A stretch of 53,599 bases of DNA from a virus, in IMG/VR virus record IMGVR_UViG_3300045988_107797, positions 1-53,599 of that record; one strand, written 5' to 3'. This document shows, one piece after another, positions 8,241-52,284 of this stretch. The position numbers and the translations under genes were made by a program. A model generated the notes under the pieces. That model did no database searches. It saw only the letters and a list, made by a program, of their open reading frames with translations, and was not told the origin of the DNA. The first letter of the stretch is position 1. The number at the start of each line of letters is the position of its first letter.

Positions 8241-8254
8241 TAGTTGTTCTCCTT

Positions 8255-8638: not shown

Positions 8639-8664
8639 AAATATCGACCCTTATTTCAAAAAAA

Positions 8665-8925
8665 TCAATTTATAGATTGGTTCATTTCATATTTTGCTTT
8701 TTGTCGAATATCCAGCAATCTGTTCAATTGCTCCTGATTAGGAAGATGTGATCTTTCAATCGTTAACTCTGGAATGGATCTCATTTCGGGATCGAATTCA
8801 ATTGTCACCTTTAAGTTCGAAATAAAATCAGATCTCCCAGCAATGTCCTCCGCCATATCGTGCATCATCTGAGCTCCGATTTTAATAGACTCGGTGAGAT
8901 AGGTACGATACTGTTCACTAGTCAT
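8665..8925 (-). CDS. Hypothetical protein (86 aa)
   Basis: ORF track. Confidence 0.55.
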   Translation of the reverse strand: MTSEQYRTYLTESIKIGAQMMHDMAEDIAGRSDFISNLKVTIEFDPEMRSIPELTIERSHLPNQEQLNRLLDIRQKAKYEMNQSIN

Positions 8926-37703: not shown

Positions 37704-39509
37704 TTAAGCAGAAACCTTTTCTACAGCTATGGCAGAATAGGGAAGAGTCAAGGCACCAGAGCAACGAGTTTCAATAAGATACTTCTGCTGGTTATAGTCA
37801 ATGTCGAAATCATCGAACATATTGACCGCACCACCCTTATCTGCACCAATGGTATAATCATTCGGATTGACGATAATGCCCAACAGAGTATGTACCTTAC
37901 TGTTATCATCAGTCCTTGTCAGATTCTCCATTACAGGAACAGTAACGATTTCCTTAACACGCAGAGTCGTAGCCAGTTTGGCAGCTGACTCATAGATCAC
38001 ACGACCGGTGGTGTCTTCCAGAAGAAGCATATCAGTAAGCATATCTTCAGTAGTGTACAGGGTGGGATTGCCAGAACCCTTATAATTCTTACGAGCCTTG
38101 ATGCACTGCTTAATGAAATTCTTAGCTATAGTAGATTCATTATCACTAGAAGCAACACTTACAGTCTGCTTGATTGTGTAGAAGTCGTCATCAGTCCAGA
38201 TAGGACGAATATGAATGGGATCAATCTTATCATCAGAAGAACTTACACGGCCATCACCAACCAAGATTGCCCTGGCAAGTTCTTCGTCTAGCATAATCCG
38301 CATTTCCTTCTTTATCCAAGCTACTACATCCAAATCAACGATATCAACCACATCATCACGATCCATCTTCTGCTTCTTATACACAGTAGTGGGGCTAGTG
38401 CTTCTCTTAAGCAAGGTGAAGACTTCCTCCTTCTTAAGATTACCCTTAATATAACCCTTAGCTCGAGCATCATCCTCGGTAATATTAGCGAAAAGGGACT
38501 TTATCCTAGAAAAAGGAGTATGGCGAATGTTATTCATGAGCTTGCTCACCCAATCCATATTGCGAGAAACAAATATGGGCTCATTCGTTACCGAGCGATC
38601 ATCGGGGAACAAATATCCGACATTCTCTATACCATAATCAGCATGGAACAGAGAATTGCTATCACAACCTCTATCCTGAGCAAAGTTCTCTACCGCTTCC
38701 CTCATACTGCCAGTACGCCTAGCATCAGCAAGTATAGCCTGCATATCATCAGCATGAATCATAGTGGTTTCGGGATCGACGTTATCAAATACATTATGCT
38801 TCATATTTTCTCCTCCATCTTCTTCGTCATTATCGTTTGCATCTTCGAGAGCCTGACCGATTAAAGCGTAAACTACAGTCTTCTGCTTTTCAGTCAATGT
38901 TTCAAAAACATCGCGTACAGTTTCTTCATTACTAGCCATTTTATCTTCCTCCTTTAAAGAATCACCCTTTGGACCTTGTGGACCAATATCTCCTTTCGGA
39001 CCTTTCGGACCTTTCAATGCAGCCAATTGTTCTTCTGTAAAATCATTCATGGAATTATGCTCGAGTATAAAATCTTCGCCGGTATAAATATCTGCTTCAT
39101 CTTCTACCATTTCCCCATGGCGCACCACATTACATATAGATGCTCCAGGATTAGCGCCAGCCAGGACAAGACTGACCTCTTTAATATCACCGTGAAGAAC
39201 ATTCGAGCCTTCCTGCTTAAGCTGATTTGCGAATATTGACAAAGCGGAAATATCACCATGTTCTACGAGAAGTTTAGCGGCTTTACCAGCTTCGCTTTCA
39301 TTAAACGTGCAATATGCATAAACACCATCTTCTTGATTCTTCAACAAAGCGTGACCAAGAACGTTACTAGGATCATCATGCCGATGGTTCCAAACCAACG
39401 GTACAATTTTTCCGTCACAGCCTTTAAAGGCGTCTCTACGTATTACACGGCCATCGGAGCATTTCAAATCGTTTCGAGTTGCCCAACCGTGAAAATCGTA
39501 TTTTACCAT
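37704..39509 (-). CDS. Prohead protease (HK97/S78-type) - collagen-like linker - major capsid protein fusion
   Basis: Protease part: VPLVWNHRHDD...ALSIFAN...EVSLVLAGANPGA. Linker: FTEEQLAALKGPKGPKGDIGPQGPKGD. The C-terminal ~410 aa are HK97-fold-capsid-like. Confidence 0.75.
   Translation of the reverse strand: MVKYDFHGWATRNDLKCSDGRVIRRDAFKGCDGKIVPLVWNHRHDDPSNVLGHALLKNQEDGVYAYCTFNESEAGKAAKLLVEHGDISALSIFANQLKQEGSNVLHGDIKEVSLVLAGANPGASICNVVRHGEMVEDEADIYTGEDFILEHNSMNDFTEEQLAALKGPKGPKGDIGPQGPKGDSLKEEDKMASNEETVRDVFETLTEKQKTVVYALIGQALEDANDNDEEDGGENMKHNVFDNVDPETTMIHADDMQAILADARRTGSMREAVENFAQDRGCDSNSLFHADYGIENVGYLFPDDRSVTNEPIFVSRNMDWVSKLMNNIRHTPFSRIKSLFANITEDDARAKGYIKGNLKKEEVFTLLKRSTSPTTVYKKQKMDRDDVVDIVDLDVVAWIKKEMRIMLDEELARAILVGDGRVSSSDDKIDPIHIRPIWTDDDFYTIKQTVSVASSDNESTIAKNFIKQCIKARKNYKGSGNPTLYTTEDMLTDMLLLEDTTGRVIYESAAKLATTLRVKEIVTVPVMENLTRTDDNSKVHTLLGIIVNPNDYTIGADKGGAVNMFDDFDIDYNQQKYLIETRCSGALTLPYSAIAVEKVSA
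38839..38952. repeat. Master copy of the ~105-nt segment duplicated at 23702..23905
   Basis: Read directly: TGCATCTTCGAGAGCCTGACCGATTAAAGCGTAAACTACAGTCTTCTGCTTTTCAGTCAATGTTTCAAAAACATCGCGTACAGTTTCTTCATT... Confidence 0.85.
38937..38957 (-). promoter_or_regulatory. Internal in-frame SD and ATG that could yield a separate 411-aa capsid protein
   Basis: AAAGGAGGAAGATAAA-ATG, with the ATG at 38939 (codon 191 of the fusion ORF). The same SD and ATG context recurs at 23890. Confidence 0.5.
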
Positions 39510-39515
39510 TTTGAA

Positions 39516-40778
39516 TTATTCCTCCTGTTTTGAAGTCGCGTTTACCCTTTCTTTTGTAATATCGTCAAGTGGTTTGACCTTGGATGTCTCTTCGTTCGAT
39601 CTATTAAGATTTTTGTTTCTCAATTCATCAGCCTGAGGAGCTCGAGAAGGCTTCATACCGACAATTTGACGAATTTCATTTGAAGTCATGATTTCATTAC
39701 GCGTAAACTTATCCGCTATTTCGGCAATCTCAGACACAGGTACCAGTTTGAATGGCTCCATGAAAAAAGAAATCGACTGCCCCTGAGTTCTTGCAGTTTT
39801 AGTAATAAAACGAACTTTCATGGCGTCGACAATTGCGGAAAGTATTGGCTCGATAATTCGATTGCGATAATTTAATATCGTTTTTTCGTCGGCGGTTCCA
39901 TCTAATATCGTCTGTGTAATACCTAACTGGCTAAAAAGCATGCTCGTTAAATATTCAACTTGCTTCAAAAGATTGTTCTCCACCGCCCGATTCAATTGAG
40001 TTATCCGCTCAGTACCATCAGTATACGCAATACCATATTTAGAACCAGTTAACTGTTCTTCGATTTCCTTTCTTCGATTTTCGGCTTGCTGCCGACGTGT
40101 TTCAGTCTTTACAACATAAGGGAGCTGAATGATAAGATCCAATTTACCTGAACTGCTCTGCTCGTCTACTGCATCGAGAAGTTTTAATTTCCTAATAAGA
40201 CGCTGCATAGTCGAGTTAGGCTCATTCATAACGGAATACATTGGGTTTTCAATAATGGCAACTTTGCGTTTTGGCCGAATAATTTGCTGTTTACGGCCAG
40301 AGTTATCATTATAAACCTCGACTTTTACCTTTTTTGGATACCATTCAGTAATCTTTCCGGTTCGAATCTCATAAATATCATACGAATCCGTATAATCCGG
40401 ATTAACATCTGTTACTGTTGGTACCAACGCAACACATCCCTCATCGAGCATTGAAAGGACAGCATCCTGAATAAAAGCCCTACCAGTCTGATCGAGATTT
40501 GCTTCAAGATTAAGACAGTTATTCAAACCCGAATCAATAGTATTTAAATATCCGCCATCTTCATCTAGTCTTACATGTCGTATAGGAATGGCTGCAACAT
40601 CAATAGCTATTCGATTATTAATTGCGGTAATTATAGATCGTTCGTTACCCCTAGTCGGCCTATATCTGTCCGGGCGATAACTGGAACTATTACCCGAATT
40701 ATCGAACATCGGGGTGGGATCACGATTAAAAAAAGCATTCCAAGCGTTTTTAAACCTGGAACCTATAGTTTCAGACAT
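39516..40778 (-). CDS. Portal protein
   Basis: 420 aa. Position between the terminase region and the protease-capsid gene. I did not recognise a family signature. Confidence 0.6.
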   Translation of the reverse strand: MSETIGSRFKNAWNAFFNRDPTPMFDNSGNSSSYRPDRYRPTRGNERSIITAINNRIAIDVAAIPIRHVRLDEDGGYLNTIDSGLNNCLNLEANLDQTGRAFIQDAVLSMLDEGCVALVPTVTDVNPDYTDSYDIYEIRTGKITEWYPKKVKVEVYNDNSGRKQQIIRPKRKVAIIENPMYSVMNEPNSTMQRLIRKLKLLDAVDEQSSSGKLDLIIQLPYVVKTETRRQQAENRRKEIEEQLTGSKYGIAYTDGTERITQLNRAVENNLLKQVEYLTSMLFSQLGITQTILDGTADEKTILNYRNRIIEPILSAIVDAMKVRFITKTARTQGQSISFFMEPFKLVPVSEIAEIADKFTRNEIMTSNEIRQIVGMKPSRAPQADELRNKNLNRSNEETSKVKPLDDITKERVNATSKQEE

Positions 40779-40795
40779 TTTAAAATATCTCCTTG

Positions 40796-41275
40796 CTAAG
40801 CAATATTAACTTTTCGTTTACTGTATGCAACTCGGCCAGAAGCCCAAACGCCATTTTTAAGTTGATTAATATTATAACCTTGATCAGCCAAAGCCATATG
40901 TACTCCTATTTCACCACGTTTAGCGATAAATTTGACCGCTCTACCTGACGGAGCTGTTATGTTAGTTGCTTTTTCATTCATGAGTTCGGCTAATTTACGA
41001 TTATAAGAATTAATTGTAGAAGCACTAATTTTACCTTTTGATGTTCTGCTTCTAGGCTGGGACAGAAGTTGATTAGCATATCTATTCATATCCCTCGAAA
41101 CGCTCTTTTGCGTTTTAGAAACGATTTTATTATAGTTCTTATTAGCCCATTTAACATCTTTCTTTTCCAGACGTTTTTGGCCCAACTCGGTCAATGTTCC
41201 ATCAGGATTCTGATACCTTCGAATGCCCCACTTCATACCAAGAATGCCATGATGATAAAGCTCATTTTTAAACAT
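40796..41275 (-). CDS. N-box paralog 4 (159 aa)
   Basis: Begins MFKNELYHHGILGMKWGIRRYQNPDGTLTELGQKR; the C-terminus is divergent. Confidence 0.65.
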   Translation of the reverse strand: MFKNELYHHGILGMKWGIRRYQNPDGTLTELGQKRLEKKDVKWANKNYNKIVSKTQKSVSRDMNRYANQLLSQPRSRTSKGKISASTINSYNRKLAELMNEKATNITAPSGRAVKFIAKRGEIGVHMALADQGYNINQLKNGVWASGRVAYSKRKVNIA

Positions 41276-41348
41276 TCATGATAACCCTCCTTTGCTCCAA
41301 AAATTCTTTATTAAGTTCAGAATCCATGGCAGACAAAAAGTAACTTCT

Positions 41349-41690
41349 CTAATTTAAAAGCCGTTTAGCTTTTGACATTTCTTCTTTATACTGGTCTTTT
41401 ATTGATGAAAGTTGGCTATCATATATTTTTGACCGTTTAATTACCGCATCTATATCATTTCCCATTCCCTTCTTTTGAAGAACGTCGAGATCTTTTAGAA
41501 AAGAATTATATGCTTTCTTAATCCTACGAGCTTTATTTTCTTTTGCCCGCCGTTTGGCCTCTTTGTATTCGCCTTTTTTATATCGTTTCGCTGATTTTGA
41601 TACTCCAACAGAATTGGTAGATGCGCGCTTTTTATGAACGCCCCATTTCATACCAAGAACACCATAGTGATAAAGCTCATTTTTAAACAT
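41349..41690 (-). CDS. N-box paralog 3 (113 aa)
   Basis: Begins MFKNELYHYGVLGMKWGVHKKR; basic C-terminus. Confidence 0.65.
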   Translation of the reverse strand: MFKNELYHYGVLGMKWGVHKKRASTNSVGVSKSAKRYKKGEYKEAKRRAKENKARRIKKAYNSFLKDLDVLQKKGMGNDIDAVIKRSKIYDSQLSSIKDQYKEEMSKAKRLLN

Positions 41691-41705
41691 TCATGAGAAT
41701 CCTCC

Positions 41706-43451
41706 TTATTCAAATGCATCTTTATTCAGTTTATATGCAACATAAGCATCTAACATAGCTGAAACAGGATCTATCTTCTGTTCGTAACGTTTTTTTAATA
41801 GTTTACGATTACCGTTCGTATCTTCGAGCGTGATGCAATTACCCATCGCAAAAGACATAAGTTCCTCATCAAAAATAAGCATTCGTTCTTCGGACAATTT
41901 CTTCAATTCTCCAAGAGGAACCGTCTCTGTCTTGGCGCCTTGACGAACCATCTCAATTCCGAATGGTCCATTTTCAGATTGCCATCTTTCGATAAACTCT
42001 TTAGCGTTATATGGGTCATAACCAAGACAACGAACATCATATTCGGCTTCAATAATATGCCTATCAATATCTTCGAAAACTTCCATCATATCCAAAACAG
42101 TTCCCTCAAGAACGATCAGACTACCTTCTTGCATAAACTGATCATATTTAATTCTCATAGCACCTGGAAGTTTATGTAACGTAAGAGACGAAATATAGGA
42201 TCTTACTTTTACGCCGAAACGACCATTCCCCAATGGAAATAGAAATACAAAAGCACAAAAGTCGTCGCCCTGCGATAAATCGACGCCCATAGCACAAGGC
42301 ATTTTCCAAAAACTTTGTTTTCTATGAGGAAGGGTCTCTTCATATGAGAAGTAATAGGTATAACCCTCCATAGGTAGACCAAATCTCTTCGCAAGGATAT
42401 CATTTCTGGCAGCTGGAGCTTTTTCAGCTCTTTCAACATCAAGCTGATACGTTTCGTAGCTTACGGTTTTTCCAATATTCGGATTAGCCTTGATATACAT
42501 TTCAGGGTCTCCGACTTCGTCAATGGAGTCAAGCTTATACCACCAAATCGAAACGTGAGGATTGATATAGTCACCCTTAAGGATGTCTATCAATTCCATT
42601 TTGATAGTATCACCGCTTCCGTTACGAACCGTACCTTCTGAGCTGATTGCAACTATGATGTAGTCATTCACCTTAGATGCACCCTGCTCAATTGCACCGA
42701 TAACATCCTCACGAATGTCGCCAGAAAGCCACTCGTCAACGGTCGCGACCTTGATTTGTAGACCCTGAAGCTTATTGATGCTCATGGGCCTGACCTCAAG
42801 AAGTGAACCTGTAAGGAAGTTTTCAATACCCTTTTTTGTAGAGGCTAACTTTGTGCGATTTGCTTTAGAACCGGTTGTATTTTGTAAAGAGCCTTCTGTT
42901 AGAAACCGAAACAGCGGTCCTCTTGCACGGGTTATAGCAGTACGAAGAGGCGACATGACTTCCTCTGCCTGTTTCATCGTTGGTGCCGTAGTAATCTGAT
43001 GGGTGGTTGAGGTATCAACGTTCAGAAAGTAACCTTGTAAAGTTGATGCATACATTGATTTGGCAGCACCTCGTGCAACAATCAAATACTGTTTGTTGAT
43101 TAGCCGTTTCTTTATATTTTTGCGAACATAATGTCCGCCATGTCCATCCAAATTAGGCTCGTACACACTTCGTTCTACAAAATAGTACCATCCAAAAATT
43201 TGCTCGCCCCAAAGTTTAAAACTGTCAAGAAGATTAAGATCGGATCCATCAGTTAATGTCAACTCATGTTCACAGTATTTAATCCAGCCTTCAACGGCTT
43301 TATCGTCGTAATAAACGCCAGGATTGGCGATTAGATCGTCAATGCGATTCATCTCCATTGAAATTTCGCGATTAACGGGTATCTCTCCTCGTATTACAGC
43401 ATCGCGAAACATACCGTAGTATTTTGGAGTAGCTGTATTTGATAGTGCCAT
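41706..43451 (-). CDS. terL: Terminase large subunit (Terminase_1 type)
   Basis: 581 aa. YLIVARGAAKSMY (P-loop-like), VATVDEW (Walker B). Nuclease part: GVDLSQGDDFCAF...KIDPVSAMLDAY. Confidence 0.85.
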   Translation of the reverse strand: MALSNTATPKYYGMFRDAVIRGEIPVNREISMEMNRIDDLIANPGVYYDDKAVEGWIKYCEHELTLTDGSDLNLLDSFKLWGEQIFGWYYFVERSVYEPNLDGHGGHYVRKNIKKRLINKQYLIVARGAAKSMYASTLQGYFLNVDTSTTHQITTAPTMKQAEEVMSPLRTAITRARGPLFRFLTEGSLQNTTGSKANRTKLASTKKGIENFLTGSLLEVRPMSINKLQGLQIKVATVDEWLSGDIREDVIGAIEQGASKVNDYIIVAISSEGTVRNGSGDTIKMELIDILKGDYINPHVSIWWYKLDSIDEVGDPEMYIKANPNIGKTVSYETYQLDVERAEKAPAARNDILAKRFGLPMEGYTYYFSYEETLPHRKQSFWKMPCAMGVDLSQGDDFCAFVFLFPLGNGRFGVKVRSYISSLTLHKLPGAMRIKYDQFMQEGSLIVLEGTVLDMMEVFEDIDRHIIEAEYDVRCLGYDPYNAKEFIERWQSENGPFGIEMVRQGAKTETVPLGELKKLSEERMLIFDEELMSFAMGNCITLEDTNGNRKLLKKRYEQKIDPVSAMLDAYVAYKLNKDAFE

Positions 43452-43530
43452 AATCTTAATAACTTTCTATTTATTTAGAGAACGTTTCAACTCGTTTATG
43501 TTTTTGTGTGTTTGTGTGTTTGTATGTTTT

Positions 43531-43941
43531 TTATTTTTCTTTCAAGCTATAATTTCCAGTTGCTACGTCATAAGATACATAATAGTCATTTGAAAATTTA
43601 TTAATATATTCTTTTACTTGATTAACGCGCTTTTCAGATAACTTTTTTAATTGATTTAGACGCATTGTTTGGTCCATTCTTGCACCTGACGTAACCCATC
43701 TTCCATATAGTGCTGGGGTTAATGCTTCTTTAGCTCCAGCATCAGCTAATTTATATTGTCTATCATAAGACTTATATTTCATTATAGCTTTATCTGATTT
43801 TTTGAATGCCTTGTTAATTTTGTATTCCGCTCTTTTTCGTCCAGCATCCGTCAAACTTCCATCAGCATTCTGATATCTTCGAACACCCCACTTCATACCA
43901 AGAATACCGTGATGGTAGAGTTCATTGGTCATACTATTCAT
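43531..43941 (-). CDS. N-box paralog 2 (136 aa)
   Basis: Begins MNSMTNELYHHGILGMKWGVRRYQNADGSLTDAGRKR. Confidence 0.65.
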   Translation of the reverse strand: MNSMTNELYHHGILGMKWGVRRYQNADGSLTDAGRKRAEYKINKAFKKSDKAIMKYKSYDRQYKLADAGAKEALTPALYGRWVTSGARMDQTMRLNQLKKLSEKRVNQVKEYINKFSNDYYVSYDVATGNYSLKEK

Positions 43942-43960
43942 CCTCTCTTATTCAAAAATA

Positions 43961-44386
43961 TCACAATCCATTACGGTTAAGTTCTTTCATGAGCTGATTT
44001 CCAACAGCGTTAGCGATACCATTTCCGACTATTTTACCGACGGTAACAAGTTGGTTACTACTATTGTAAATACTTAGTGCTGTACCCATAACCCCAGCAC
44101 CAAGAACAACATATTTCCAACCCTTTTTAATCGCATTCGGATTGAGTTTCTTATAATTCTGTTCAAGTTGTGCTCTTTCGGTTAATTTTCGTAATTCCGC
44201 ATTCGACATTTCATTGATAGATTTCCGCTTCAATTGGTCGACCGTCTTTGCGTCATCGCTCCAATTGTTGGTTCGATCTCGTCTGCGTTTCTTACCGGCC
44301 GGAGTATAAGTGCCATCTTTATTCTGATAACGTCTTATACCCCACTTCATACCAAGAATACCGTGATGATACAGTTCATTTTTCAC
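43961..44386 (-). CDS. N-box paralog 1 (141 aa, GTG start) with a hydrophobic Gly-rich C-terminus
   Basis: GGAGGTG SD. Begins MKNELYHHGILGMKWGIRRYQNKDGTYTPAGKKR...; also KYVVLGAGVMGTALSIY. Confidence 0.6.
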   Translation of the reverse strand: MKNELYHHGILGMKWGIRRYQNKDGTYTPAGKKRRRDRTNNWSDDAKTVDQLKRKSINEMSNAELRKLTERAQLEQNYKKLNPNAIKKGWKYVVLGAGVMGTALSIYNSSNQLVTVGKIVGNGIANAVGNQLMKELNRNGL

Positions 44387-44388
44387 GA

Positions 44389-44745
44389 TTAATCACCTCC
44401 ATTATTGATTAGCGGAGGATCAGCTTCTACCATAAGTCTCCATTCTAATTCGACGATCTGCGCTTTTAATGATTCGAGCACGGATGCTATGGTTGGAGGA
44501 TCGAATAGAAGCCTAACTTTAGCATACATATAACTCTTAACAGCTGCAAGCTTCGAACCATCTGCAAGAAAGTCGTTCCAAGTATCCAAATCGCTTGTAA
44601 TGCTAAATCCATATTTCGGGCCAACTCCAAGCTGCTTAAGAATCATAAAAACCGAATTAATATGAATAATCAAGTCGGTATCAAAAGATGTATCCTCCTG
44701 CGATATGCCTACCAATTTCTTTACCGATATTAGTATGCTATCCAT
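44389..44745 (-). CDS. Hypothetical protein, possibly a gp6-like head-tail connector
   Basis: 118 aa. An N-terminal ISVKKLVGISQEDTSFDTDLI pattern resembles connector/adaptor proteins. Confidence 0.3.
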   Translation of the reverse strand: MDSILISVKKLVGISQEDTSFDTDLIIHINSVFMILKQLGVGPKYGFSITSDLDTWNDFLADGSKLAAVKSYMYAKVRLLFDPPTIASVLESLKAQIVELEWRLMVEADPPLINNGGD

Positions 44746-44760
44746 TTTGATTTTTCTCCT

Positions 44761-45045
44761 TTAAGACGATAGTTCCACAAAATCTTTCATACAGTAGCCT
44801 TTAACACCATAACTGTTGGCTACCTCAAAAAAGACCGAATTCGCTTCCCCGATCAATTCTAGTCGGGTGCCTTTCTCCAATACGCAAAGAATTTTACTTT
44901 CAACACGTGGAAGTTCACGAAGATTAAGCCTTTCACATGTAACTGTAACAAAAGATTTAATAGGTGTTTCCGCAATAGGATGAGGTTTGTCGTAATTTCG
45001 ATGATTTCGAGACATTATTTCCTCCATCAATGCCGCCAAGGGCAT
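44761..45045 (-). CDS. SH3-like domain protein (94 aa)
   Basis: VTCERLNLRELPRVESKILCVLEKGTRLELIGE...GYC is an SH3_3-like pattern. Confidence 0.4.
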   Translation of the reverse strand: MPLAALMEEIMSRNHRNYDKPHPIAETPIKSFVTVTCERLNLRELPRVESKILCVLEKGTRLELIGEANSVFFEVANSYGVKGYCMKDFVELSS

Positions 45046-45443
45046 GTATCATATTGTTTTCTTTCAATTGGTGCGACTATCAACAGTTTTTCATCGCCGT
45101 AATGTATTGCATTGTGTGTGTTGTGCGAAGTTGAAATAAGATTATTCAAATCAAAAACGCAAGGGTTACACGCAACTATGTCTTCTACCGTTATCGGATT
45201 AATGTGATGAATAATAATTTTACTGTAAATCTCAAATCCCTCACATCCCAAATCACAGCCATTATCGCGTAGTATTACCTTATCTCGTACTCGTTTCCAT
45301 TCGCTTAACGTATAAAGCTTTTGATTTAAATACCTATCGTGTCCAAAAGTTTGATCGCCAATAACCCCATAGACTTTAAGATAACGAAATCGTTCCTCAA
45401 AAGTTGGTATCGTTATTAGTTCATTATAAGACTTCATCATCAT
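45027..45443 (-). CDS. HNH endonuclease
   Basis: IIIHHINPITVEDI...NLISTSHNTHNAIHYG. The start is uncertain (three consecutive ATGs at 45437-45443; the track uses an upstream GTG). Confidence 0.7.
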   Translation of the reverse strand: MMMKSYNELITIPTFEERFRYLKVYGVIGDQTFGHDRYLNQKLYTLSEWKRVRDKVILRDNGCDLGCEGFEIYSKIIIHHINPITVEDIVACNPCVFDLNNLISTSHNTHNAIHYGDEKLLIVAPIERKQYDTCPWRH

Positions 45444-45765
45444 CCGAATCGTCCCGCCCACTATATTCTTTCATAGCTGCTAGAGCCTCGAGATACATTT
45501 CTTTCATTTCTGTAGCCGATTCATAAGCGTGTTTCTTAGCGTCAAGCAATGCTACCTCTTTTTCAAGTTTAGCCCTTTCCAACCGTTCTCTTTCCGTCCC
45601 CAATCTCAAATAATGAGCTATCACCTGCGTGGAGGCGGTTCCATTCCTAAGCTGTTGTTCAGCCAAATCAGTAGCAAGAAATATCAGCTGATTTTCTCTG
45701 GCTTCTGGAGTCAAAGCCGGTTTGAATTTAGTCTCGGACTTTTTTTCAGAAGTTACTTTTTTCAC
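45424..45765 (-). CDS. Small-terminase-like / packaging accessory protein candidate
   Basis: 113 aa, helical, acidic tail. Its position upstream of HNH is the only real evidence. Confidence 0.3.
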   Translation of the reverse strand: MKKVTSEKKSETKFKPALTPEARENQLIFLATDLAEQQLRNGTASTQVIAHYLRLGTERERLERAKLEKEVALLDAKKHAYESATEMKEMYLEALAAMKEYSGRDDSDDDEVL

Positions 45766-45796
45766 AATAACCGCCTCCTTTCATCATTTATAGGGA

Positions 45797-46822
45797 TCAT
45801 GAAATGAAGATTTTCAGCCTTCCGTAATGGGTCCACTTCTTAAGATTATCGATTTTACCCGTCATTCTATTGTAAGTCTTGCGACTCCAAACATCGGGAA
45901 ACGGACGGAATACCACACCATAAGCAGTGCCAGCGGCTTCATAAAGACCATCTGAACCAAGAACTGCCATATGAACAGCCTTACCTGTAGCATCAACCCT
46001 AAAGAAAATATCCAAGGGACGAACTTCGTTGGCGGTTATCTGCTTGCAGAAGTTTTTAAACATTCCATTAGCAGTAGTATCATCCTTACGATTGACTACT
46101 CCATCGCCATTAATATCGATAAGCCCGATCATCTCATTCAGCTTCATAAACAAACCGGAGCAATCTTCGGCATATATATGACGTCCAAGGGAATTGGCCC
46201 TCGAAACTTCTGCCAGCATCCAATTCTTTCGACCACCGGTAAAATACCCAGGTCTATCTTTCGCTCTCGCATTTACATAATCTGCGGTTACTTCGTGTCC
46301 CTGAGCACCGATAATATACTCGTCACCGACCATCATTCTCAGCCAACAGGTGGCATCATTAATGAGCTCATCGTCATATACGAGTTTAGAAATATCCGGA
46401 GCCATATTAAGAGCATCCATAGTTATGTCATCCACAATACCGGTAGTCGGAAATCCTTTATCCTTCTGGAATTTCTCTACTGCTTTTGCTGACTTAGGGC
46501 CATATACTCCATCTGAAGAAACCTTATAGCCATGAACTATAAGGCGCTCCTGAACGTGTTTCACTTCCTCACCCCTCATATAAGGATTATCCAATTTAAT
46601 TTCCATATGCTTGTCAATAGTATTAAGCGCGGCCATTGTAGCGTCATCTACAATACCAGTAACATGTAGTCCATTAGCCTTTTGGAACTTCTCTACTGCT
46701 TTGGCTGACTTGGGTCCGTATATTTCGTCAACGGAGACCTTATAGCCATGAATTATAAGACGCTCCTGAATATGTTTTACTTCTTCGCCTTTCATATAAG
46801 GCATATCGAGTTTAATTTCCAT
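45797..46822 (-). CDS. Endolysin: 2 x PG_binding_1 plus an NlpC/P60-type cysteine peptidase
   Basis: Two repeats of VKHIQERLIIHGYKVS.DEIYGPKSAKAVEKFQKANGL..TGIVDD.TM.ALN. The C-terminus has AEDCSGLF...VHMAV. Confidence 0.7.
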   Translation of the reverse strand: MEIKLDMPYMKGEEVKHIQERLIIHGYKVSVDEIYGPKSAKAVEKFQKANGLHVTGIVDDATMAALNTIDKHMEIKLDNPYMRGEEVKHVQERLIVHGYKVSSDGVYGPKSAKAVEKFQKDKGFPTTGIVDDITMDALNMAPDISKLVYDDELINDATCWLRMMVGDEYIIGAQGHEVTADYVNARAKDRPGYFTGGRKNWMLAEVSRANSLGRHIYAEDCSGLFMKLNEMIGLIDINGDGVVNRKDDTTANGMFKNFCKQITANEVRPLDIFFRVDATGKAVHMAVLGSDGLYEAAGTAYGVVFRPFPDVWSRKTYNRMTGKIDNLKKWTHYGRLKIFIS

Positions 46823-47778: not shown

Positions 47779-48558
47779 TTATCGTTTCATTCGAAATATC
47801 GCCAAAAATGCGAAAAATACCCCGAAACCTAGAATTATACAAACACCCACTATAGCAGCCGTTATCGGAACATCTCCAGTCTTGGGCAGTACCATGTTTT
47901 CAACGGGTTTTACGGTAGCACTCTGAGCCTTCCAGCTTACTATTTTTTCAGTTTCGCAAATCTTGCCGAAATTTCGAAGAAGTACCTCGTCACTCATTAC
48001 TATCCGTCCACCATAGACATCTTCTAGTGTCATCTCTAGCTCGTTCAGCTTTTTGGTTAGTTCGAGAGCGGTCCCGTTAAACCTCACATCCGTAACAATA
48101 TTGTTCGCTCGTGTAAAAGTCAGTTCGCCTATCTGGACTGTATTTCCGTTAGCTGTAACTTTCTCGGAGCCAAAGTAAAGTTCATTCATATCAGTCTTTT
48201 CTGTAATCTTAACCTGAAGATAAGGGTCGTCTCCGGTCACCTTGGCCTCATGAAGACCATTTGAAAGCGTTCGAGTATACTCTAGGTCATGCATAAAAAG
48301 TTCATAACCATCGAAATCGTTATTATTCTTATCCCTTACAGAAAGTGAAAAATAAACCTTACTGTGCTTCTTAGCAACAGCATTCGAATTCTCAGTAAAA
48401 GCTGTGCCCAAATCAGAATTGACCACTTCATACTTATCCACCTGAATATTGTAATAGGTGGAATTCTCTACATTTAGTGTCTTCCAATTAAGTGCCAAAG
48501 CCGATGACGTTGAAAAAACAAGTATCATAATGATAAGAAACGTTATAATCTTTTTCAT
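47779..48558 (-). CDS. Secreted LPXTG (sortase-anchored) cell-wall surface protein
   Basis: Signal peptide MKKIITFLIIMILVFSTSSALA. The C-terminus has LPKTGD, then the hydrophobic VPITAAIVGVCIILGFGVFFAFLAIF, then RMKR. Confidence 0.8.
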   Translation of the reverse strand: MKKIITFLIIMILVFSTSSALALNWKTLNVENSTYYNIQVDKYEVVNSDLGTAFTENSNAVAKKHSKVYFSLSVRDKNNNDFDGYELFMHDLEYTRTLSNGLHEAKVTGDDPYLQVKITEKTDMNELYFGSEKVTANGNTVQIGELTFTRANNIVTDVRFNGTALELTKKLNELEMTLEDVYGGRIVMSDEVLLRNFGKICETEKIVSWKAQSATVKPVENMVLPKTGDVPITAAIVGVCIILGFGVFFAFLAIFRMKR

Positions 48559-48607
48559 TTTGATTTTTCCTTTCTATTTTTGTGTTAACAAAGAGCCATG
48601 TGGTTTC

Positions 48608-48797
48608 TTATTCCTGAAGTTTCCATCCATCGGGATATTGTTCTGGGGTGTAGACGTTAGCGGCGATGAGGCTCTTGGCCGTTGTGAACGAATGCCGCGC
48701 CTTTTGCATAGCTCGTTCCAGCCTGCCACGGCTCCAATGCCGCCGCGTCCATACTGGCACGGATGGCCTGCGCCTGCTGCAAAATATCTGTTCTCAT
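48608..48797 (-). pseudogene. Small ORF split by a +1 frameshift
   Basis: ATG at 48797 with a GGAGGAG SD gives MRTDILQQAQAIRASMDAAALEPWQAGTSYAKGAAFVHNGQEPHRR*. In the +1 frame the text continues KSLIAANVYTPEQYPDGWKLQE*. Removing one C in AACGGCCAAG restores a 62-aa ORF. Confidence 0.55.
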
Positions 48798-48941
48798 ACG
48801 CTCTCCTCCGTTTCCACACCCAATAACGACCTTTCTATATTTTGCAAGCTAAATTTTGCGTGATTAAAAATTTTTAACAGCCACCCCGATGGCAGATGCC
48901 GCCGGTATGATGTATTCCATTTACGTTACCTCCGTCATACG

Positions 48942-49463
48942 TTACGATAGCTTTGTTGCGTTGGCTTCCAAAAATTCAAGGACTTCGCCGGTTGCAGGTT
49001 CGTCAAGCACGATTGTACGGTAGGCTTCGTTTTGCCATGTAGATGTTTTGTAATCGTAAACAAGTGTTTGATTGTAGTCATCTTTATAATAGTACAGATA
49101 ATCGTAGAACTTGTTTCTTATTTCCACAAATCGCACATATGCGACACCATTTGATTTAAAATTGACAATTTTCGACTGCCGACATCTATCTATCGTATCG
49201 TTGAAGTACCATGTCTCGCCACTTGGCGCAGAGCCAACTAATTCCACAACAATATTGCCCTGCATTAACTTCCCATTGCAGTTCAGCGTTTTGCCTCCTA
49301 TGACAACATCAGATACCATCACTTTGCCATTACAGCCCAGTGTTTTGGTGTCTCCGTCATTAAGTGTTGCAATGGTTGCGTTGTTGTAAGCAACAGACAC
49401 AGGGGCGGTTTCGTCAACAGCAGATATCTCGTTGCCGTTATAAGAAATCTTGCAAGTGCTCAT
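48942..49463 (-). CDS. Tail-fibre-module protein (173 aa)
   Basis: ORF track; its start overlaps the upstream stop. Confidence 0.6.
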   Translation of the reverse strand: MSTCKISYNGNEISAVDETAPVSVAYNNATIATLNDGDTKTLGCNGKVMVSDVVIGGKTLNCNGKLMQGNIVVELVGSAPSGETWYFNDTIDRCRQSKIVNFKSNGVAYVRFVEIRNKFYDYLYYYKDDYNQTLVYDYKTSTWQNEAYRTIVLDEPATGEVLEFLEANATKLS

Positions 49464-49744
49464 TATGTCACGCTCCCGTCATAGGTCGGAATTGCCACCG
49501 TCACCGCCACACTACTCAGCCCATCATACCCATCATCAGGCGTGATGGTAGCCGTACCGTTTGAGGTGTAGGTGACAGATTTGGATTGGAGGCTGGGCGC
49601 GCTGCTGGCAGGAATACTAGCAATCGCCGTGGCGAGGTTGGCAACAGTTTGAGACGCTGGCACCGTGCCGCCTTTCTCTGATACCTTGCTGTAGGCGTTT
49701 CCGACAGCCGTAATAATGCGATCAATTTCGCTTTGTACGCTCAT
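49463..49744 (-). CDS. Tail-fibre-module protein (93 aa), with an N-terminus paralogous to 49757..50866
   Basis: MSVQSEIDRIITAVGNAYSKV... compared with MSIANEISRIQEARDTLRAKA... Confidence 0.6.
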   Translation of the reverse strand: MSVQSEIDRIITAVGNAYSKVSEKGGTVPASQTVANLATAIASIPASSAPSLQSKSVTYTSNGTATITPDDGYDGLSSVAVTVAIPTYDGSVT

Positions 49745-49756
49745 ATGATACCTCCG

Positions 49757-50866
49757 TCAGATAGCGGCAAGAGCCGTCTCAATGTCGTTGGTAAGACTTA
49801 CAGTGCCGCCGGTAGTGTAACCGGAAGGAATCGTGTACTGCGTGTCGCCGGTTACAGAACCCAGACCGGTAATGGTTGCGGAGATTTGATCGTTGTTCGC
49901 CATAGTGCCGGTGATTTTAGTGCCGTTCACCCAGCCCTGATAGCCTGTCAGCATCTGAGCGGCGGTAACTGCGGTTTTGCCGTTGTCAACGCCAGTCTGA
50001 GATCCCAGCGTCTTGGCAGTCACTTTACCGGAGCCGTTGTGATAACCGGCGGGAATGGTGTAGGAACCACCGGCACTCAATGCAGAAGGCGTAACAGCGC
50101 CATTGTTCTCCATTGTACCGGTAATAGCTACCGGAGTCTTTTCTGTGGAATCCCAACTGATAGCTGTCTTCCCTGACAGGATATTTGCAGCCACAGCGGT
50201 CTTGTCGGTAGCGTCAGCGTACTGCTTGGGGATCGCCGCAACGGTCACAGAGGACAGCACCTTCCCATCGTCGGCGGAAATCGTCTGCGCCTCTTTTGTA
50301 GGCGTTGCGGACTTTGTCTGCGGAACAACAGATACCGTACCGATGCCGTTATGGTATCCGGCCGGAACGGAATAACTGGTGGTGTTCGTGTCAAGCGTTG
50401 CGCTTACTGCACCGCGATTTTGCATAGTACCGGTCTGCACCTTGCCGTTGGAATCTACATACACTTTAGGAGACAGCACATCGCCAACCGTTGCAGTGAC
50501 AGAAGAAACGTCCTGATAAACATCTGGGATGGGCGCAACTGTAACGGTATCAAGTCCGTAATAACCGGCATCGTTATCCACGACCTGTTCCGACTTCGTA
50601 GGGGTCACTGTCTTGGACTGAAGATTATAGTTGCCGCCGCCGGCGACGCCCTTGATAGATCCGCCGTGATAGTATCCGGCGGAAAGGGTAACGCTCTCGC
50701 CCTCTTTCACCTCGGCATTGGGTGTTCCACGGTCAACAATTCCGTCGTACTTTGTCGCAAGCTGCGTAAGGTTGTCAGTCGACAGGCCAACGCCCAGAGC
50801 AACAGCCTTTGCGCGGAGCGTGTCACGCGCTTCCTGAATTCTGCTGATTTCATTCGCAATGCTCAT
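49757..50866 (-). CDS. Tail fibre protein with internal repeats
   Basis: 369 aa. Recurring units ...PAGYHNG.G.V.V... and ...GKTA....G....GTM.N.GAV... High GC. Confidence 0.65.
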   Translation of the reverse strand: MSIANEISRIQEARDTLRAKAVALGVGLSTDNLTQLATKYDGIVDRGTPNAEVKEGESVTLSAGYYHGGSIKGVAGGGNYNLQSKTVTPTKSEQVVDNDAGYYGLDTVTVAPIPDVYQDVSSVTATVGDVLSPKVYVDSNGKVQTGTMQNRGAVSATLDTNTTSYSVPAGYHNGIGTVSVVPQTKSATPTKEAQTISADDGKVLSSVTVAAIPKQYADATDKTAVAANILSGKTAISWDSTEKTPVAITGTMENNGAVTPSALSAGGSYTIPAGYHNGSGKVTAKTLGSQTGVDNGKTAVTAAQMLTGYQGWVNGTKITGTMANNDQISATITGLGSVTGDTQYTIPSGYTTGGTVSLTNDIETALAAI

Positions 50867-50877
50867 AATTTACCTCC

Positions 50878-51552
50878 TTAAATCGCCTGTAACAGAGCGT
50901 TGATATTCCCGCAAATAACGTGCACACCGGAAGATGTGATCGGTCTTGTGTTGTCTTGTTCCGCGTCATCAGTTGTGTTTACACACAGAGTCCCGGAACG
51001 ACTGACAAGCGTGTTTCCGTCGATGGTGTTAAACGGCTTATCGCTGATTTGGCTCCAGTTTCCGCCAGAACCACCACTGGACACCTCCGGCAAAGGAAGC
51101 TCGCTCTCTACATATACACCGCTGTCTGTGTCCCAAAGCAGCCAGTATCCGTTTTCACCAGGAATGGGCGGGTGATTGTTCAGGTCGATTACTTTAGCTA
51201 GCCAACTGGGCTGCGGCTCCGGCGCGTCCTTCTCCCAAAGGGTATTGGACTTCTCCAACCGCAGGGACACAACGTTTGTTGGAACTTCTTGCGTACCGCT
51301 TTTTCCGAACAGTGTAACTTCAAAGCGGTCCTGTTCTGTGAACCATTCTGGCACTTCCACAAGGTCGTCTACCACGTCGATGGGCTGCGATACCTCGCCA
51401 TGCTGCAAATAGCACAGCTTGTCTAAATCTTTCCAGTCGGAAGAGAACGTGAATTGCAAGGTCAGATAGTCTTTACTTCCTTTACGGGGAACAGATTTTG
51501 TTTCTACAATGGACAACGTTTGCTCAAATACTTGCAGTCGTATAATCATCAA
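50878..51552 (-). CDS. Tail fibre / baseplate-module protein
   Basis: 224 aa. HPPIPGENGYWLLWDTDSGVYVES motif. Confidence 0.55.
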   Translation of the reverse strand: MMIIRLQVFEQTLSIVETKSVPRKGSKDYLTLQFTFSSDWKDLDKLCYLQHGEVSQPIDVVDDLVEVPEWFTEQDRFEVTLFGKSGTQEVPTNVVSLRLEKSNTLWEKDAPEPQPSWLAKVIDLNNHPPIPGENGYWLLWDTDSGVYVESELPLPEVSSGGSGGNWSQISDKPFNTIDGNTLVSRSGTLCVNTTDDAEQDNTRPITSSGVHVICGNINALLQAI

Positions 51553-51577
51553 ATCACCTCCTTTACACGCGATGATA

Positions 51578-51985
51578 TTAAGAATTATCTATTGCCAGAT
51601 CTTCAGTCGTGACGTCTATCCTGGCATAACCACCCCTTTCGTGTACTTTTCCCTGACCGTTTATCGTGCAGTTGCATGCGACGGTATACTCGTAGTCCGG
51701 ACCGTGATTTATACACTGCACAGCAGTTCTTACGCACTTGTTGTTCACGAATATGCCGTACTTCTCGTTTCCGCCCATGTTGGGGCTTATCTTTGTATGC
51801 AGTATTATGGTACTGCCCTGCCTCACCTTGTACGTACCCAGTTCCGTTATGATCTCCTGGTCTACAGCCACATACCTTTCACCAAACAGGCCGGAATTAT
51901 CAAAGCTTCCTGTAAGCGTCAGCGTGACCGTCTTAACTATTTTCCTCATCATCCTACGTCTTAGTGCGTACTGTATAGGTATCAT
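51578..51985 (-). CDS. Tail-fibre-module protein (135 aa)
   Basis: Start set at the ATG at 51985, which overlaps the upstream stop (ATGA). Confidence 0.55.
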   Translation of the reverse strand: MIPIQYALRRRMMRKIVKTVTLTLTGSFDNSGLFGERYVAVDQEIITELGTYKVRQGSTIILHTKISPNMGGNEKYGIFVNNKCVRTAVQCINHGPDYEYTVACNCTINGQGKVHERGGYARIDVTTEDLAIDNS

Positions 51986-52284
51986 GCGCTCACAACCTCC
52001 TGCACCGCCCATACACCGTTCAGCACATCAAATTCATAAGTCTTTGATGCTTCAATGGTGGGGGCAGTTCCTAAGAACGTACCCGCAAAGGATACGGATA
52101 CGCTTGTCCCTGTGGTAAACTTACCATGCGCCCATCCAGTAGCAGGGGGCGTAAAAGCGTATGTTTTTACAGTAACGGCAACATTATAAATCGTATTATT
52201 GGCCAAAGCAGTTCCGATATCAGGGAGTATTGTTGTAGTGATGGGTGCAGCTTGCAAACCCGTTCCAGTCACTTGATACATCAT
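51982..52284 (-). CDS. Tail-fibre-module protein (100 aa)
   Basis: ORF track. Confidence 0.55.
   Translation of the reverse strand: MMYQVTGTGLQAAPITTTILPDIGTALANNTIYNVAVTVKTYAFTPPATGWAHGKFTTGTSVSVSFAGTFLGTAPTIEASKTYEFDVLNGVWAVQEVVSA

Follow-up and report, generated by a model that had tools for sequence, protein, structure and literature searches.

Why do several small genes among the head genes of a gut phage begin with the same short peptide and then encode unrelated proteins, and does the RNA polymerase of this phage carry a version of that peptide? We addressed these questions in a stretch of 53,599 nt (IMG/VR record IMGVR_UViG_3300045988_107797, positions 1 to 53,599), called the window throughout, which derives from an Oengus/1706-like siphovirus. 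The original prediction had tentatively read the shared peptide, here called the box, as a tag for proteins that are packaged into the capsid and ejected with the DNA.

Four box genes flank the large terminase gene

Four open reading frames with a common N-terminal box, termed p1 to p4, lie on the minus strand exactly where the original prediction had placed them: two are upstream and two downstream of terL, all four precede the portal gene, and the shared box extends over about 35 aa. The genes and their landmarks are given from high to low coordinates:

44389-44745, minus strand: head-tail connector (Phage_connect_2, E = 1.4e-37), upstream boundary of slot 1
43961-44386, minus strand: p1, 141 aa, DUF7211 box protein
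44282-44386, minus strand: p1 box, VKNELYHHGILGMKWGIRRYQNKDGTYTPAGKKRR
43531-43941 as listed, minus strand: p2, ORF of 136 aa, box protein
43831-43932, minus strand: p2 box, MTNELYHHGILGMKWGVRRYQNADGSLTDAGRKR
41706-43451, minus strand: large terminase terL (TerL_nuclease, E = 9.5e-35), fixed landmark separating the two box-gene slots
41349-41690, minus strand: p3, 113 aa, DUF7211 box protein
40796-41275, minus strand: p4, 159 aa, DUF7211 box protein, directly upstream of the portal gene
39516-40778, minus strand: portal protein (Phage_portal, E = 1.7e-16), downstream boundary of slot 2
37704-39509, minus strand: prohead protease (S78) fused to the HK97-fold major capsid protein (MCP; Pfam match and alignment)

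All four box genes belong to a single late operon that no promoter or terminator interrupts; a separate scaffold gene is absent from the window, which has the protease-MCP fusion instead. The residues N-E-L-Y-H-x-G-x-L-G-M-K-W-G are invariant across p1 to p4, and a four-box profile searched against the six-frame translation of the window returned these four proteins only (E = 1e-24 to 1e-27; next E = 0.7). Past the box they diverge as completely as had been claimed, mutual similarity being not significant (best blastp E = 0.47). The gene for p1 starts with GTG 2 nt past the connector stop codon, and its product represents a conserved subfamily in which the box is followed by MSNAELRKLxERxxLEQxY and then by LNP and a Gly-rich stretch of hydrophobic character. 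Full-length homologues of p1 number at least 120, with identities of 50-98%. For p2 the true start is most likely the second ATG at 43932, which yields a protein of 133 aa beginning MTNELYHHG, because an SD-like GAGAGGA abuts the first ATG and family members begin with the same residues. The third protein, p3, is box-like over the first ~22 aa only, with a degenerate YQNxDGSLT half and a strongly basic remainder (K+R 27%). The predicted shared RBS context, AAGGAGGnTTnTCATGAATGTTT, was found upstream of p3 and p4.

The box is a short peptide of the DUF7211 family

The box corresponds to Pfam DUF7211 (PF23847), a family for which Pfam records no function and public data contain 32,461 representative clusters. 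With scores of 30.8, 39.5, 36.4 and 30.3 bits for p1, p2, p3 and p4, respectively, all four proteins pass the gathering score cut-off of 27 bits and belong to this family. The Pfam model spans 25 positions, whereas the conserved unit in the window phage comprises ~35 residues plus an acidic lead-in, with the consensus acidic-x-E-L-Y-H-H-G-I-x-G-M-K-W-G-V-R-R-Y-Q-N-x-D-G-S-L-T-x-A-G-x-K-R; fused proteins add a junction motif upstream of the box. The box surpasses every other part of the proteins in conservation, but the two AF2 runs gave it low confidence and little regular structure: in p1 pLDDT values were 42-58 in the first half of the box and 77-87 in the middle helices, and in p2 an unstructured box preceded a helical remainder with a hairpin. 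Judged by these models, the box behaves as a short linear motif and would not fold by itself. A conserved peptide as strongly basic as this might alternatively act by binding nucleic acid.

Box genes occupy two recurrent slots and carry hypervariable cargo

Extra genes at this position had been thought unusual; they are instead the rule in this phage lineage. When the box profile was searched in other phages together with gene neighbourhoods, as had been suggested, two recurrent slots emerged, connector-terL and terL-portal. The order in 80 IMG/VR loci was polymerase ... p113-HNH-connector-(0-4 box genes)-terL-(0-4 box genes)-portal-protease/MCP, and on independent genome contigs the module was present in 52 of the 54 loci that measured 12 kb or more, where the nearest neighbours of box genes were connector and terL 72 times and terL and portal 67 times; as the loci were sampled by similarity to the window's box, these positional statistics are biased to this lineage. 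Across the 80 viral and 54 genome loci a phage carries one to eight box genes. The same arrangement was seen in Gordonia phage Odesza, Arthrobacter phage Synepsis, FP_oengus and ReqiPoco6, and the siphoviruses with the box comprise Oengus-like and 1706-like Firmicutes phages plus an actinophage supercluster.

The cargo parts of the box proteins are hypervariable: 177 unique sequences fell into 84 clusters, whereas TerL, portal, MCP, connector and HNH formed one cluster apiece in the same comparison, and TerL identity is ~74% among phages with such diverse cargo. Box proteins are basic (K+R 20% versus D+E 12%), a hydrophobic segment is present in 22% of them, and their modules include papain-fold toxin/glutamine deamidase, GNAT and Barstar. 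No match to a known DNA-binding family emerged, and the MuF family was absent from the Pfam matches of p1 to p4 and of 65 multi-box proteins.

Multi-box proteins share a junction motif

The box had been described as N-terminal, a view that proved too narrow: it also occurs internally, and many proteins bear two to five boxes. All 65 multi-box representatives match DUF7211. In these fused proteins a junction motif (hydrophobic-K-H-S-D/A) lies 4-25 residues ahead of each internal box; of 213 internal boxes, 54% had H[SD] ahead of them, versus 7.5% of random windows, and stand-alone box proteins ended in it no more often than background (3% versus 2.9%). Judging from the sequences, the junctions of the fused forms are probably cut sites of the prohead protease. 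A similar pattern may exist in the protease-MCP fusion:

38787-38804, minus strand: MKHNVF motif, aa 236-241 of the protease-MCP fusion, at the linker/capsid boundary; a lead only

A (M/V)KHNxF motif past the acidic linker is present in 46 of 53 unique protease-MCP homologues, and MKHNVF at the MCP boundary resembles the hydrophobic-K-H-S junction ahead of internal boxes. Comparison of the two motifs gave no statistical support for this resemblance (hhalign P = 0.008; 7 of 200 shuffles scored equally well or better), and the boundary motif scored at most 3.4 bits against an HMM of the first half of the box.

The polymerase peptide is linked to the box at the family level

The proposed connection to the RNA polymerase concerns the following features:

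1164-3878, minus strand: YonO-like single-subunit RNA polymerase, 904 aa, with HTH domains
2310-2327, minus strand: catalytic loop GADFDGD, at aa 518 of the polymerase
3777-3878, minus strand: polymerase N-terminal peptide, aa 1-34, ...EDILMHYGIKRRSGRYPWGSGENPYQHSG, a 'type-B' box variant

The enzyme is a YonO-type two-barrel polymerase with a DxDGD loop; it matched phrog_4291 with 1302.9 bits over aa 2-903 and Pfam RdRP weakly. HHpred evidence for a YonO-like/RdRP-like polymerase family has been reported, and HTH domains are present at both ends of the polymerase (Pfam; 10.1101/842583). Homologues occur in 250 phage records, and the N-terminal peptide is conserved from Firmicutes phages through to actinophages.

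The original prediction had based the connection on pairwise similarity, which was not significant for three of the paralogs (p = 0.06-0.22). The match to p2 reached p = 0.007, but it was driven by 'MNS', residues that are probably untranslated because p2 most likely starts at the second ATG. The polymerase gave no match to DUF7211 at E <= 0.1, and a broad full-length box HMM reached E = 0.16. On profile comparison, the link between polymerase and box holds at the family level, the first halves being related: hhalign of the polymerase N-terminal profile with the box profile scored 26.8 (P = 7.6e-6), a value reached in none of 300 column shuffles (mean 9.6, maximum 24.1), and when 3,076 non-box N-termini were ranked by an HMM of the first half of the box, the first seven places went to polymerases and 18 of the 22 polymerases stood within the top 26. 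The similarity spans about 10-17 residues and is confined to the acidic/hydrophobic first half (D-x-L-x-H-Y-G); the basic second half is not shared with the polymerase. A 413-aa non-polymerase protein of locus L055, which occurs on two contigs from two samples, combines a canonical N-terminal box, a KHSD junction and then the polymerase-type 'DVLIHAGVKFKSGRYPWGSGARPHQH' in the slot of an internal box. Outside polymerases, the polymerase-type motif was found in this one mosaic lineage only.

Lactococcus phage 1706 is a relative with the same genome plan. Its orf7, a two-box protein directly upstream of terL, and its orf75, the polymerase homologue, both bear the GenBank label 'structural protein'; their virion association is taken from the GenBank annotation, and the corresponding labels in the Rhodococcus phages were transferred by similarity only.

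A capsid-loading peptide is the favoured reading

With moderate confidence we favour the reading that the box is a capsid-loading peptide for ejected proteins, including the polymerase with its variant, and that the fused junctions are likely cut by a protease. We infer docking, cleavage and ejection of the box proteins as follows. The box would mark the start of each 'cargo module' and dock it within the assembling procapsid, with the protease-scaffold-capsid fusion protein or the portal as partner. In this way a variable collection of proteins, mainly basic and helical and in some cases with membrane-like segments or effector domains, would be packaged in the head and ejected with the DNA into the host. 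The YonO-type polymerase, with its diverged peptide (same first half, different second half), would be loaded likewise and would then be a virion RNA polymerase. Cutting of the junctions by the prohead protease would release modules with N-termini like those of stand-alone proteins, which makes the protease-MCP fusion (37704-39509) both a candidate processing enzyme and a candidate docking partner. The idea of a tag on packaged and ejected proteins finds partial, circumstantial support: the 1706 labels, the family-level polymerase link, the L055 mosaic and the hypervariable and sometimes effector-like cargo argue for it, whereas the pairwise polymerase evidence is not significant, the polymerase has no DUF7211 match and the box is also internal.

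A wider version, which we regard as possible rather than probable, extends this to the whole supercluster of Firmicutes and Actinobacteria siphoviruses. One peptide code, an acidic lead-in followed by hydrophobic-L-x-H-[H/Y]-G with interchangeable second halves, would load a hypervariable ejected arsenal and the YonO-type RNA polymerase into an HK97-type head with a protease-capsid fusion, and hydrophobic-x-His would be the cleavage code of the maturation protease.

Alternative readings

The box proteins could instead be head assembly or structural accessories (auxiliary scaffold, portal/connector plug, head completion), with the box as an oligomerisation or portal/terminase-binding motif; they may then be present in the virion without being delivered effectors, and the likeness to the polymerase would reflect a shared partner or convergence. 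The location of the genes between the connector, terL and portal genes suits this, as do the many long, scaffolding-protein-like helices, the presence of a protease-MCP fusion without a separate scaffold gene and the structural annotation of 1706 orf7; moreover, p1 is a conserved positional orthologue and not a variable gene. We nevertheless consider it unlikely: copy numbers of 1-8, 84 cargo clusters among 177 sequences and toxin-like, GNAT and Barstar modules are atypical of stoichiometric structural parts, and the related polymerase peptide would be left unexplained.

The composition of the box, rich in K/R/W/Y (GMKWGVRRYQN...KR), and the basic excess of the box proteins would also fit a nucleic-acid-binding peptide, by which histone-like DNA-condensing or end-binding proteins enter the head on the DNA and which the polymerase shares as a DNA-binding element; the genes flank the terminase, and the polymerase has its HTH domains at both ends (10.1101/842583). 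However, what the polymerase shares is the acidic/hydrophobic and not the basic half, the lack of a match to known DNA-binding families is unfavourable, toxin, GNAT and Barstar cargo as well as TM-like segments are unexpected of DNA-condensing proteins, and the junction motif of fused modules finds no explanation, which renders this reading improbable.

We assign a similarly low probability to an action of the box proteins in the infected cell rather than in the virion, as late host-takeover or anti-defence factors whose box binds a host factor or a phage enzyme, for example the polymerase. Hypervariability and effector-like domains suit arms-race genes, and box proteins are without functional annotation anywhere, but the genes lie inside a late head-gene operon without promoters of their own, their position is conserved across two bacterial phyla and the 1706 homologue is labelled a virion structural protein.

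Very improbable is a box that matters mainly as DNA, the conserved 5' segment and RBS acting as a cassette-shuffling recombination site and the peptide having no specific role: the boxes are similar in DNA, including the RBS context of p3 and p4, and the slots contain variable numbers of unrelated cassettes, but 7 of the 12 invariant residues are encoded by more than one codon among the four paralogs and high-GC actinophages retain the peptide with different codons, which argues for selection at the protein level, and the box recurs within long ORFs, at places that require no RBS. Cassettes may still be exchanged by recombination at the box, though this cannot account for everything.

Implications

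Were the box to serve as a signal for loading the head, it would account for more than 30,000 clusters of proteins without known function from phages of gut and soil, and the injected proteins of a phage could be read from sequence alone. These proteins would be candidates for anti-defence and host takeover, among them ones with toxin-like, acetyltransferase and RNase-inhibitor modules; the YonO-type polymerase that is the signature of the lineage would belong to the virion, with consequences for the start of transcription in these phages; and a compact tag would be at hand for packaging foreign proteins in siphovirus capsids of Gram-positive hosts. Should the supercluster-wide code hold, a capsid-targeting system would for the first time be defined in siphoviruses, one akin to encapsulin cargo loading, and it would offer a sequence handle to list injected proteins in thousands of uncultured gut phages. 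Cultured phages of the lineage include 1706, FP_oengus and many SEA-PHAGES isolates.

Comparison with known systems

The T4 capsid targeting sequence (CTS) is a short N-terminal propeptide common to unrelated, poorly conserved internal proteins (IPI, IPII, IPIII); it directs these basic proteins into the prohead, where the prohead protease removes it, and the proteins are then injected, their variability being attributed to an arms race with host defences (PMC9026906). The box is likewise a short N-terminal peptide on otherwise unrelated proteins of one phage. It has no sequence similarity to the CTS and is longer (~35 aa versus ~10 aa, the CTS being cut at L/I-x-E by gp21); furthermore it recurs in multi-module proteins and belongs to siphoviruses with a protease-MCP fusion, where its roles in targeting and cleavage are putative.

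Paralogous sets of head-internal proteins that include virion RNA polymerase subunits and are protease-processed and ejected occur in phiKZ-like phages and SPN3US (PMC5694885, PMC7411985, PMC10052503). Unlike the window phage, these giant phages are myoviruses, and their virion RNA polymerases are multisubunit enzymes. Glu occupies P1 of their cleavage motif, and we know of no shared box of this kind in them. N4-like and crAss-like phages have virion RNA polymerases, and the window's 904-aa protein shares the two-barrel type of YonO of SPbeta; it differs from the N4-like and crAss-like enzymes in lineage (siphovirus, about 900 aa). To our knowledge, no packaging signal has been described for N4-like, crAss-like or YonO polymerases, nor is YonO of SPbeta known as a virion protein.

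MuF-fused polymorphic toxins and the Dar proteins of phage P1, which are packaged anti-defence proteins, resemble the box proteins, on the reading favoured here, in placing variable effectors on a conserved capsid-placing element and in being encoded beside portal and head genes. Box proteins differ from MuF toxins in having no MuF domain, their conserved element being a short peptide and not a folded domain. Short unstructured peptides on diverse cargo are known from encapsulins too, where they dock inside an HK97-fold shell, as we propose for the box; these cargo-loading peptides usually stand at the C-terminus and have no sequence relationship to the box.

Box genes around the large terminase

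We found that the four small genes around the large terminase gene (terL), p1-p4, all lie on the minus strand and begin, as predicted, with a common N-terminal peptide of ~35 aa (the box), followed by an individual remainder (the cargo part). The terminase, portal, protease/capsid fusion, connector and HNH genes assigned as their neighbours were found as well:

37704-39509, minus strand: prohead-protease/HK97-capsid fusion
39516-40778: portal
40796-41275, minus strand: p4, 159 aa
41349-41690, minus strand: p3, 113 aa
41706-43451: large terminase
43531-43941, minus strand: p2, 136 aa as listed
43961-44386, minus strand: p1, 141 aa, GTG start
44389-44745: head-tail connector
44761-45045, minus strand: 94-aa protein with a bacterial SH3 (SH3_3) domain, between HNH and connector
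45027-45461: HNH endonuclease
45424-45765, minus strand: p113 (phrog_4259), 113 aa, upstream of the HNH gene

The residues N-E-L-Y-H-x-G-x-L-G-M-K-W-G are invariant across the four boxes, and a four-box profile searched against the six-frame translation of the window matched p1-p4 only (E = 1e-24 to 1e-27; next match E = 0.7). Past the box, none of the four proteins is related to another (best blastp E = 0.47), in line with the divergence noted originally, and the ribosome-binding context said to be common to p3 and p4 was confirmed upstream of both. The true start of p2 is probably the second ATG at 43932, since the SD-like GAGAGGA directly adjoins the first ATG but is separated from the second by ~9 nt, and since MTNELYHHG is how relatives begin.

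The p1-p4 genes form one operon, and no convincing promoters or terminators were found between them. Matches to sigma-70-like promoters are depleted in window 39400-46000 (8 versus 20.1 ± 3.3 in shuffles), and all window ORFs that were given a function are on the minus strand. Both observations would fit transcription independent of host-type promoters, for which they are not evidence. The SH3_3 gene shares 19 bases with the end of the HNH gene. The position of p113 is kept across the sampled loci; the protein has no Pfam match and its PHROG family, phrog_4259, is of unknown function, and it is likely the small-terminase candidate of an HNH/cos-type packaging module.

Conservation and predicted structure of the box

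The box is already catalogued as a domain without function: it corresponds to Pfam PF23847 (DUF7211), a 25-position family whose gathering score is exceeded by all of p1-p4. PHROG families containing the box are all labelled 'unknown function', and a literature search with the DUF7211 name and box motif strings gave no relevant paper. When 1.84 billion representative proteins were searched exhaustively with HMMER, 32,461 matched at E <= 0.001 and 10,595 still did at E <= 1e-10. The best-scoring proteins carry 2-5 boxes apiece; the first box lies inside the first 60 residues in 144 of the top 150 proteins and additional boxes are internal. Therefore the box marks the start of a module and not only that of a protein. 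The idea that it occurs mainly as free mini-peptides was dropped because a second search showed a preference for matches near the query length, a bias reflected in the first wide search by matches of 32-79 aa only.

A rival explanation places the function of the box in the DNA, as a recombination site; among p1-p4, more than one codon is used at 7 of the 12 invariant box residues, the peptide is kept in high-GC actinophages (DDFLxHYGVKGMKWGKRR), and selection acts on the box peptide.

In AlphaFold2 models of p2 and p1 (two runs, 61 and 65 aligned sequences) the box was the least confident part, with a pLDDT of 49-63 for residues 1-20 of p2 and below 50 for residues 1-12 of p1; no fold was obtained for the box, and the variable parts of both proteins were modelled as confident helices. 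Foldseek against BFVD returned no match at E <= 0.001, nor did a profile search of PDB sequences match the box. Judged from these models, the box, highly conserved yet not folding alone, appears to behave like a linear docking motif.

Two gene slots in one phage lineage

The window is akin to Faecalibacterium phage FP_oengus and Lactococcus phage 1706, which group with a supercluster of Arthrobacter, Gordonia, Streptomyces, Rhodococcus, Curtobacterium and Microbacterium phages. This grouping has been described with the putative RNA polymerase as a signature gene and without mention of box genes (bioRxiv 10.1101/842583).

A profile search for the box in other phages with a record of gene neighbourhoods, as the original prediction had proposed, revealed two slots that recur across the sampled loci. 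In 80 IMG/VR loci the gene order is polymerase ... p113-HNH-connector-(0-4 box genes)-terL-(0-4 box genes)-portal-protease/MCP, with 1-8 box genes per phage, counts that are underestimates because the box HMM misses ORFs with a degenerate variant. An independent sample was drawn from bacterial genomes and MAGs, mainly of gut Clostridia: the module is present in 52 of 54 loci of >= 12 kb, and the nearest non-box neighbours are connector and terL 72 times and terL and portal 67 times, although both samples say little on other lineages because they were chosen by similarity to the window's box. Among cultured relatives, Arthrobacter phage Synepsis bears the box on all four terminase-portal genes and on one gene upstream of terL; Gordonia phage Odesza bears it on three terminase-portal genes and internally in one protein upstream of terL, and the annotators of ReqiPoco6 already recorded similarity 'at amino terminus' among seven genes of this slot. 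Thus extra genes at this position, previously considered unusual, are the norm in this lineage.

The N-terminal ~350 aa of the Odesza protein (gp12) may be a separate domain fused ahead of the box module; a Gly/Ser-rich low-complexity stretch follows the box. A third, degenerate variant (NELMHGGHKYIKK..., DELYHS...HHKYVK; pattern ELxH..HKY.K) was seen in some ORFs of the terL-portal slot and also in the third module of 1706 orf7.

Odesza (L001), 7361-8926, minus strand: gp12, upstream of terL, box internal at aa 358 of a 523-aa frame
L024, 1783-2259: degenerate-box ORF, terL-portal slot
L028, 6258-6800: degenerate-box ORF, terL-portal slot
L028, 6813-7334: degenerate-box ORF, terL-portal slot
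L017, 12569-12967: degenerate-box ORF, terL-portal slot

Cargo parts

TerL of the related phages forms one cluster with a median identity of 74%, and portal, MCP, connector, HNH and p113 likewise fall into a single cluster each; clustering the cargo parts of single-box proteins (177 unique sequences) gives 84 clusters. In box proteins, basic residues outnumber acidic ones (K+R 20%, D+E 12%), a property to be considered with the rival explanation of the box as a nucleic-acid-binding element, and 22% of the proteins have a hydrophobic segment. Most modules lack a Pfam match. The matched modules in 65 multi-box proteins are papain-fold toxin/glutamine deamidase (3), GNAT acetyltransferases (3-4) and Barstar (1), and it is beside these that an intracellular role of box proteins, a further rival, has to be weighed.

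Unlike the variable cargo, p1 is a member of a conserved subfamily (at least 120 homologues over the full length, 50-98% identity) in which the box is followed by MSNAELRKLxERxxLEQxY and then by LNP and a hydrophobic Gly-rich segment. Of 11 genes of the p1 type, 10 are upstream of terL, and this layout is also that of the first module in 1706 orf7.

Relation of the polymerase N-terminus to the box

The 904-aa protein encoded at 1164-3878 (minus strand) is a YonO-type two-barrel RNA polymerase, with GADFDGD at aa 518 and a phrog_4291 match of 1302.9 bits. The pairwise likeness between its N-terminus and the paralogs was not upheld in shuffles (p = 0.18, 0.007, 0.06 and 0.22 for p1-p4), the lone low value resting on 'MNS', a stretch that probably lies ahead of the true p2 start. 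The polymerase did not match Pfam DUF7211 and the narrow four-box profile test of the link was negative; with a broad full-length box HMM it reached only E = 0.16, yet was the best non-box ORF of the window.

The link was positive in family-level tests only. The N-terminal peptide of the polymerase family is strongly conserved, (D/E)xLxHYG(M/I/V/T)x(R/K)(R/H/K)SGRYPWGSG, and is retained in 1706, Tanis, Cheesy and Rima. Its profile-profile alignment with the box spans 17 columns (acidic-x-L-x-H-Y-G-I-K) and scores 26.8; in 300 column shuffles the highest score was 24.1 (mean 9.6, sd 2.6). From the 80 loci we also took 3,076 non-box ORFs and searched their N-termini with an HMM of the first 15 columns of canonical boxes (first-half HMM): polymerases took ranks 1-7 and 18 of 22 came within the top 26, a ranking that amounts to one family coming first and not to 18 independent events because the polymerases are mutually related.

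Both peptide types meet in a 413-aa mosaic protein (L055:10592-11833, plus strand; also L089:71-859), identical on contigs of two samples. It has a canonical box at the N-terminus and, after a KHSD junction, 'DVLIHAGVKFKSGRYPWGSGARPHQH' at the second-box site; two TM-like segments, the polymerase-type 'GVKFKSGRYPWGSG' and the p1-type 'LNRVKLEQEYNKV' lie in one chain, the remainder of which is unrelated to polymerase. Further non-polymerase proteins with the polymerase-type motif were searched for, and only this lineage was found. From these family-level results we conclude that the polymerase peptide is a diverged box variant, with the same first half and a different second half.

Directly after the polymerase, a small conserved gene (910-1158, minus strand; MNNVALTTFDNPYDPFDDFTSWF...GYNSCAYLARI...) was observed, which also closes the gene order of Tanis (gp93), Cheesy (gp101) and 1706 (orf76) and accompanies the polymerase at the right genome end. 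A tail-fibre- or baseplate-like ORF runs off the left window edge (1-900, minus strand); the right edge has a gene for a collagen-repeat protein (52289-53557, minus strand). In relatives, the right genome end is where the polymerase sits, and the left can hold fibre genes; therefore the window has the look of a complete genome (about 53.6 kb), circularly permuted or joined. Across roughly 48-52 kb, G+C rises from about 0.38-0.42 to 0.46-0.51; the ORFs 49757-50866 and 50878-51552 in this region have no Pfam match, and window 48000-52000 may be of foreign origin.

Junction motif and protease-capsid fusion

Internal boxes are preceded, 4-25 residues ahead of their HHG, by a junction motif (hydrophobic-K-H-S-(D/A)-hydrophobic). 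H[SD] occurs in 54% of 213 windows upstream of internal boxes versus 7.5% of random windows from the same proteins. Stand-alone box proteins show no such enrichment at their C-termini (3% versus 2.9% background), and a general C-terminal module feature was rejected; the motif is therefore specific to module-module joins within one chain. The distance from junction to box matches that from start codon to box in stand-alone proteins, mostly 6-20 residues. In this placement, the junction motif is what would be expected of a processing site.

In 46 of 53 unique protease-MCP fusions (M/V)KHN(V/I/A)F directly follows an acidic linker (aa 236-241 in the window), and further hydrophobic-x-His sites lie ahead of the conserved capsid-domain start, which suggests, as a lead only, that hydrophobic-x-His may be a cleavage code. 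A suspected homology of the MCP boundary (MKHNVF ... VLxHSD) with junction plus box is likewise a lead only, without statistical support: hhalign aligned the two as predicted (P = 0.008, a result equalled or bettered by 7 of 200 shuffles), and the first-half HMM gave 3.4 bits or less on the MCP sites. A collagen-like GPKGPKGDIGPQGPKGD stretch (fusion aa 167-183, 38961-39011) lies in the linker between the protease domain and an acidic scaffold-like region; it is absent from three aligned relatives (FP_oengus, 1706 and Synepsis).

Possible function of the box

In phage 1706, the product of orf7 (462 aa), encoded immediately upstream of terL, has two boxes, near residues 32 and 178. The GenBank record labels it 'structural protein', as it does orf75, the polymerase homologue; these labels presumably come from mass spectrometry of virion proteins. 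Reviews mentioning 1706 are silent on its proteome. The 'structural' labels in ReqiPepy6 and ReqiPoco6 were rejected as support, being no independent evidence because they were transferred from 1706 by similarity. The 1706 labels also bear on the rival in which box proteins have a structural or scaffold role.

A capsid-loading peptide like the T4 capsid targeting sequence would be the most economical reading of the box, and we lean slightly towards it. The original prediction of such a tag is partly supported, on better grounds than its own; its pairwise polymerase evidence did not stand. In T4, the capsid targeting sequence is a short N-terminal propeptide carried by basic internal proteins that are poorly conserved and mutually unrelated; it suffices for packaging and is cut off by the prohead protease (PMC9026906). 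In contrast to T4, the box peptide is longer and two-part, is reused within multi-module proteins, belongs to a siphovirus with a protease-capsid fusion, and has a variant that sits on a YonO-type polymerase.
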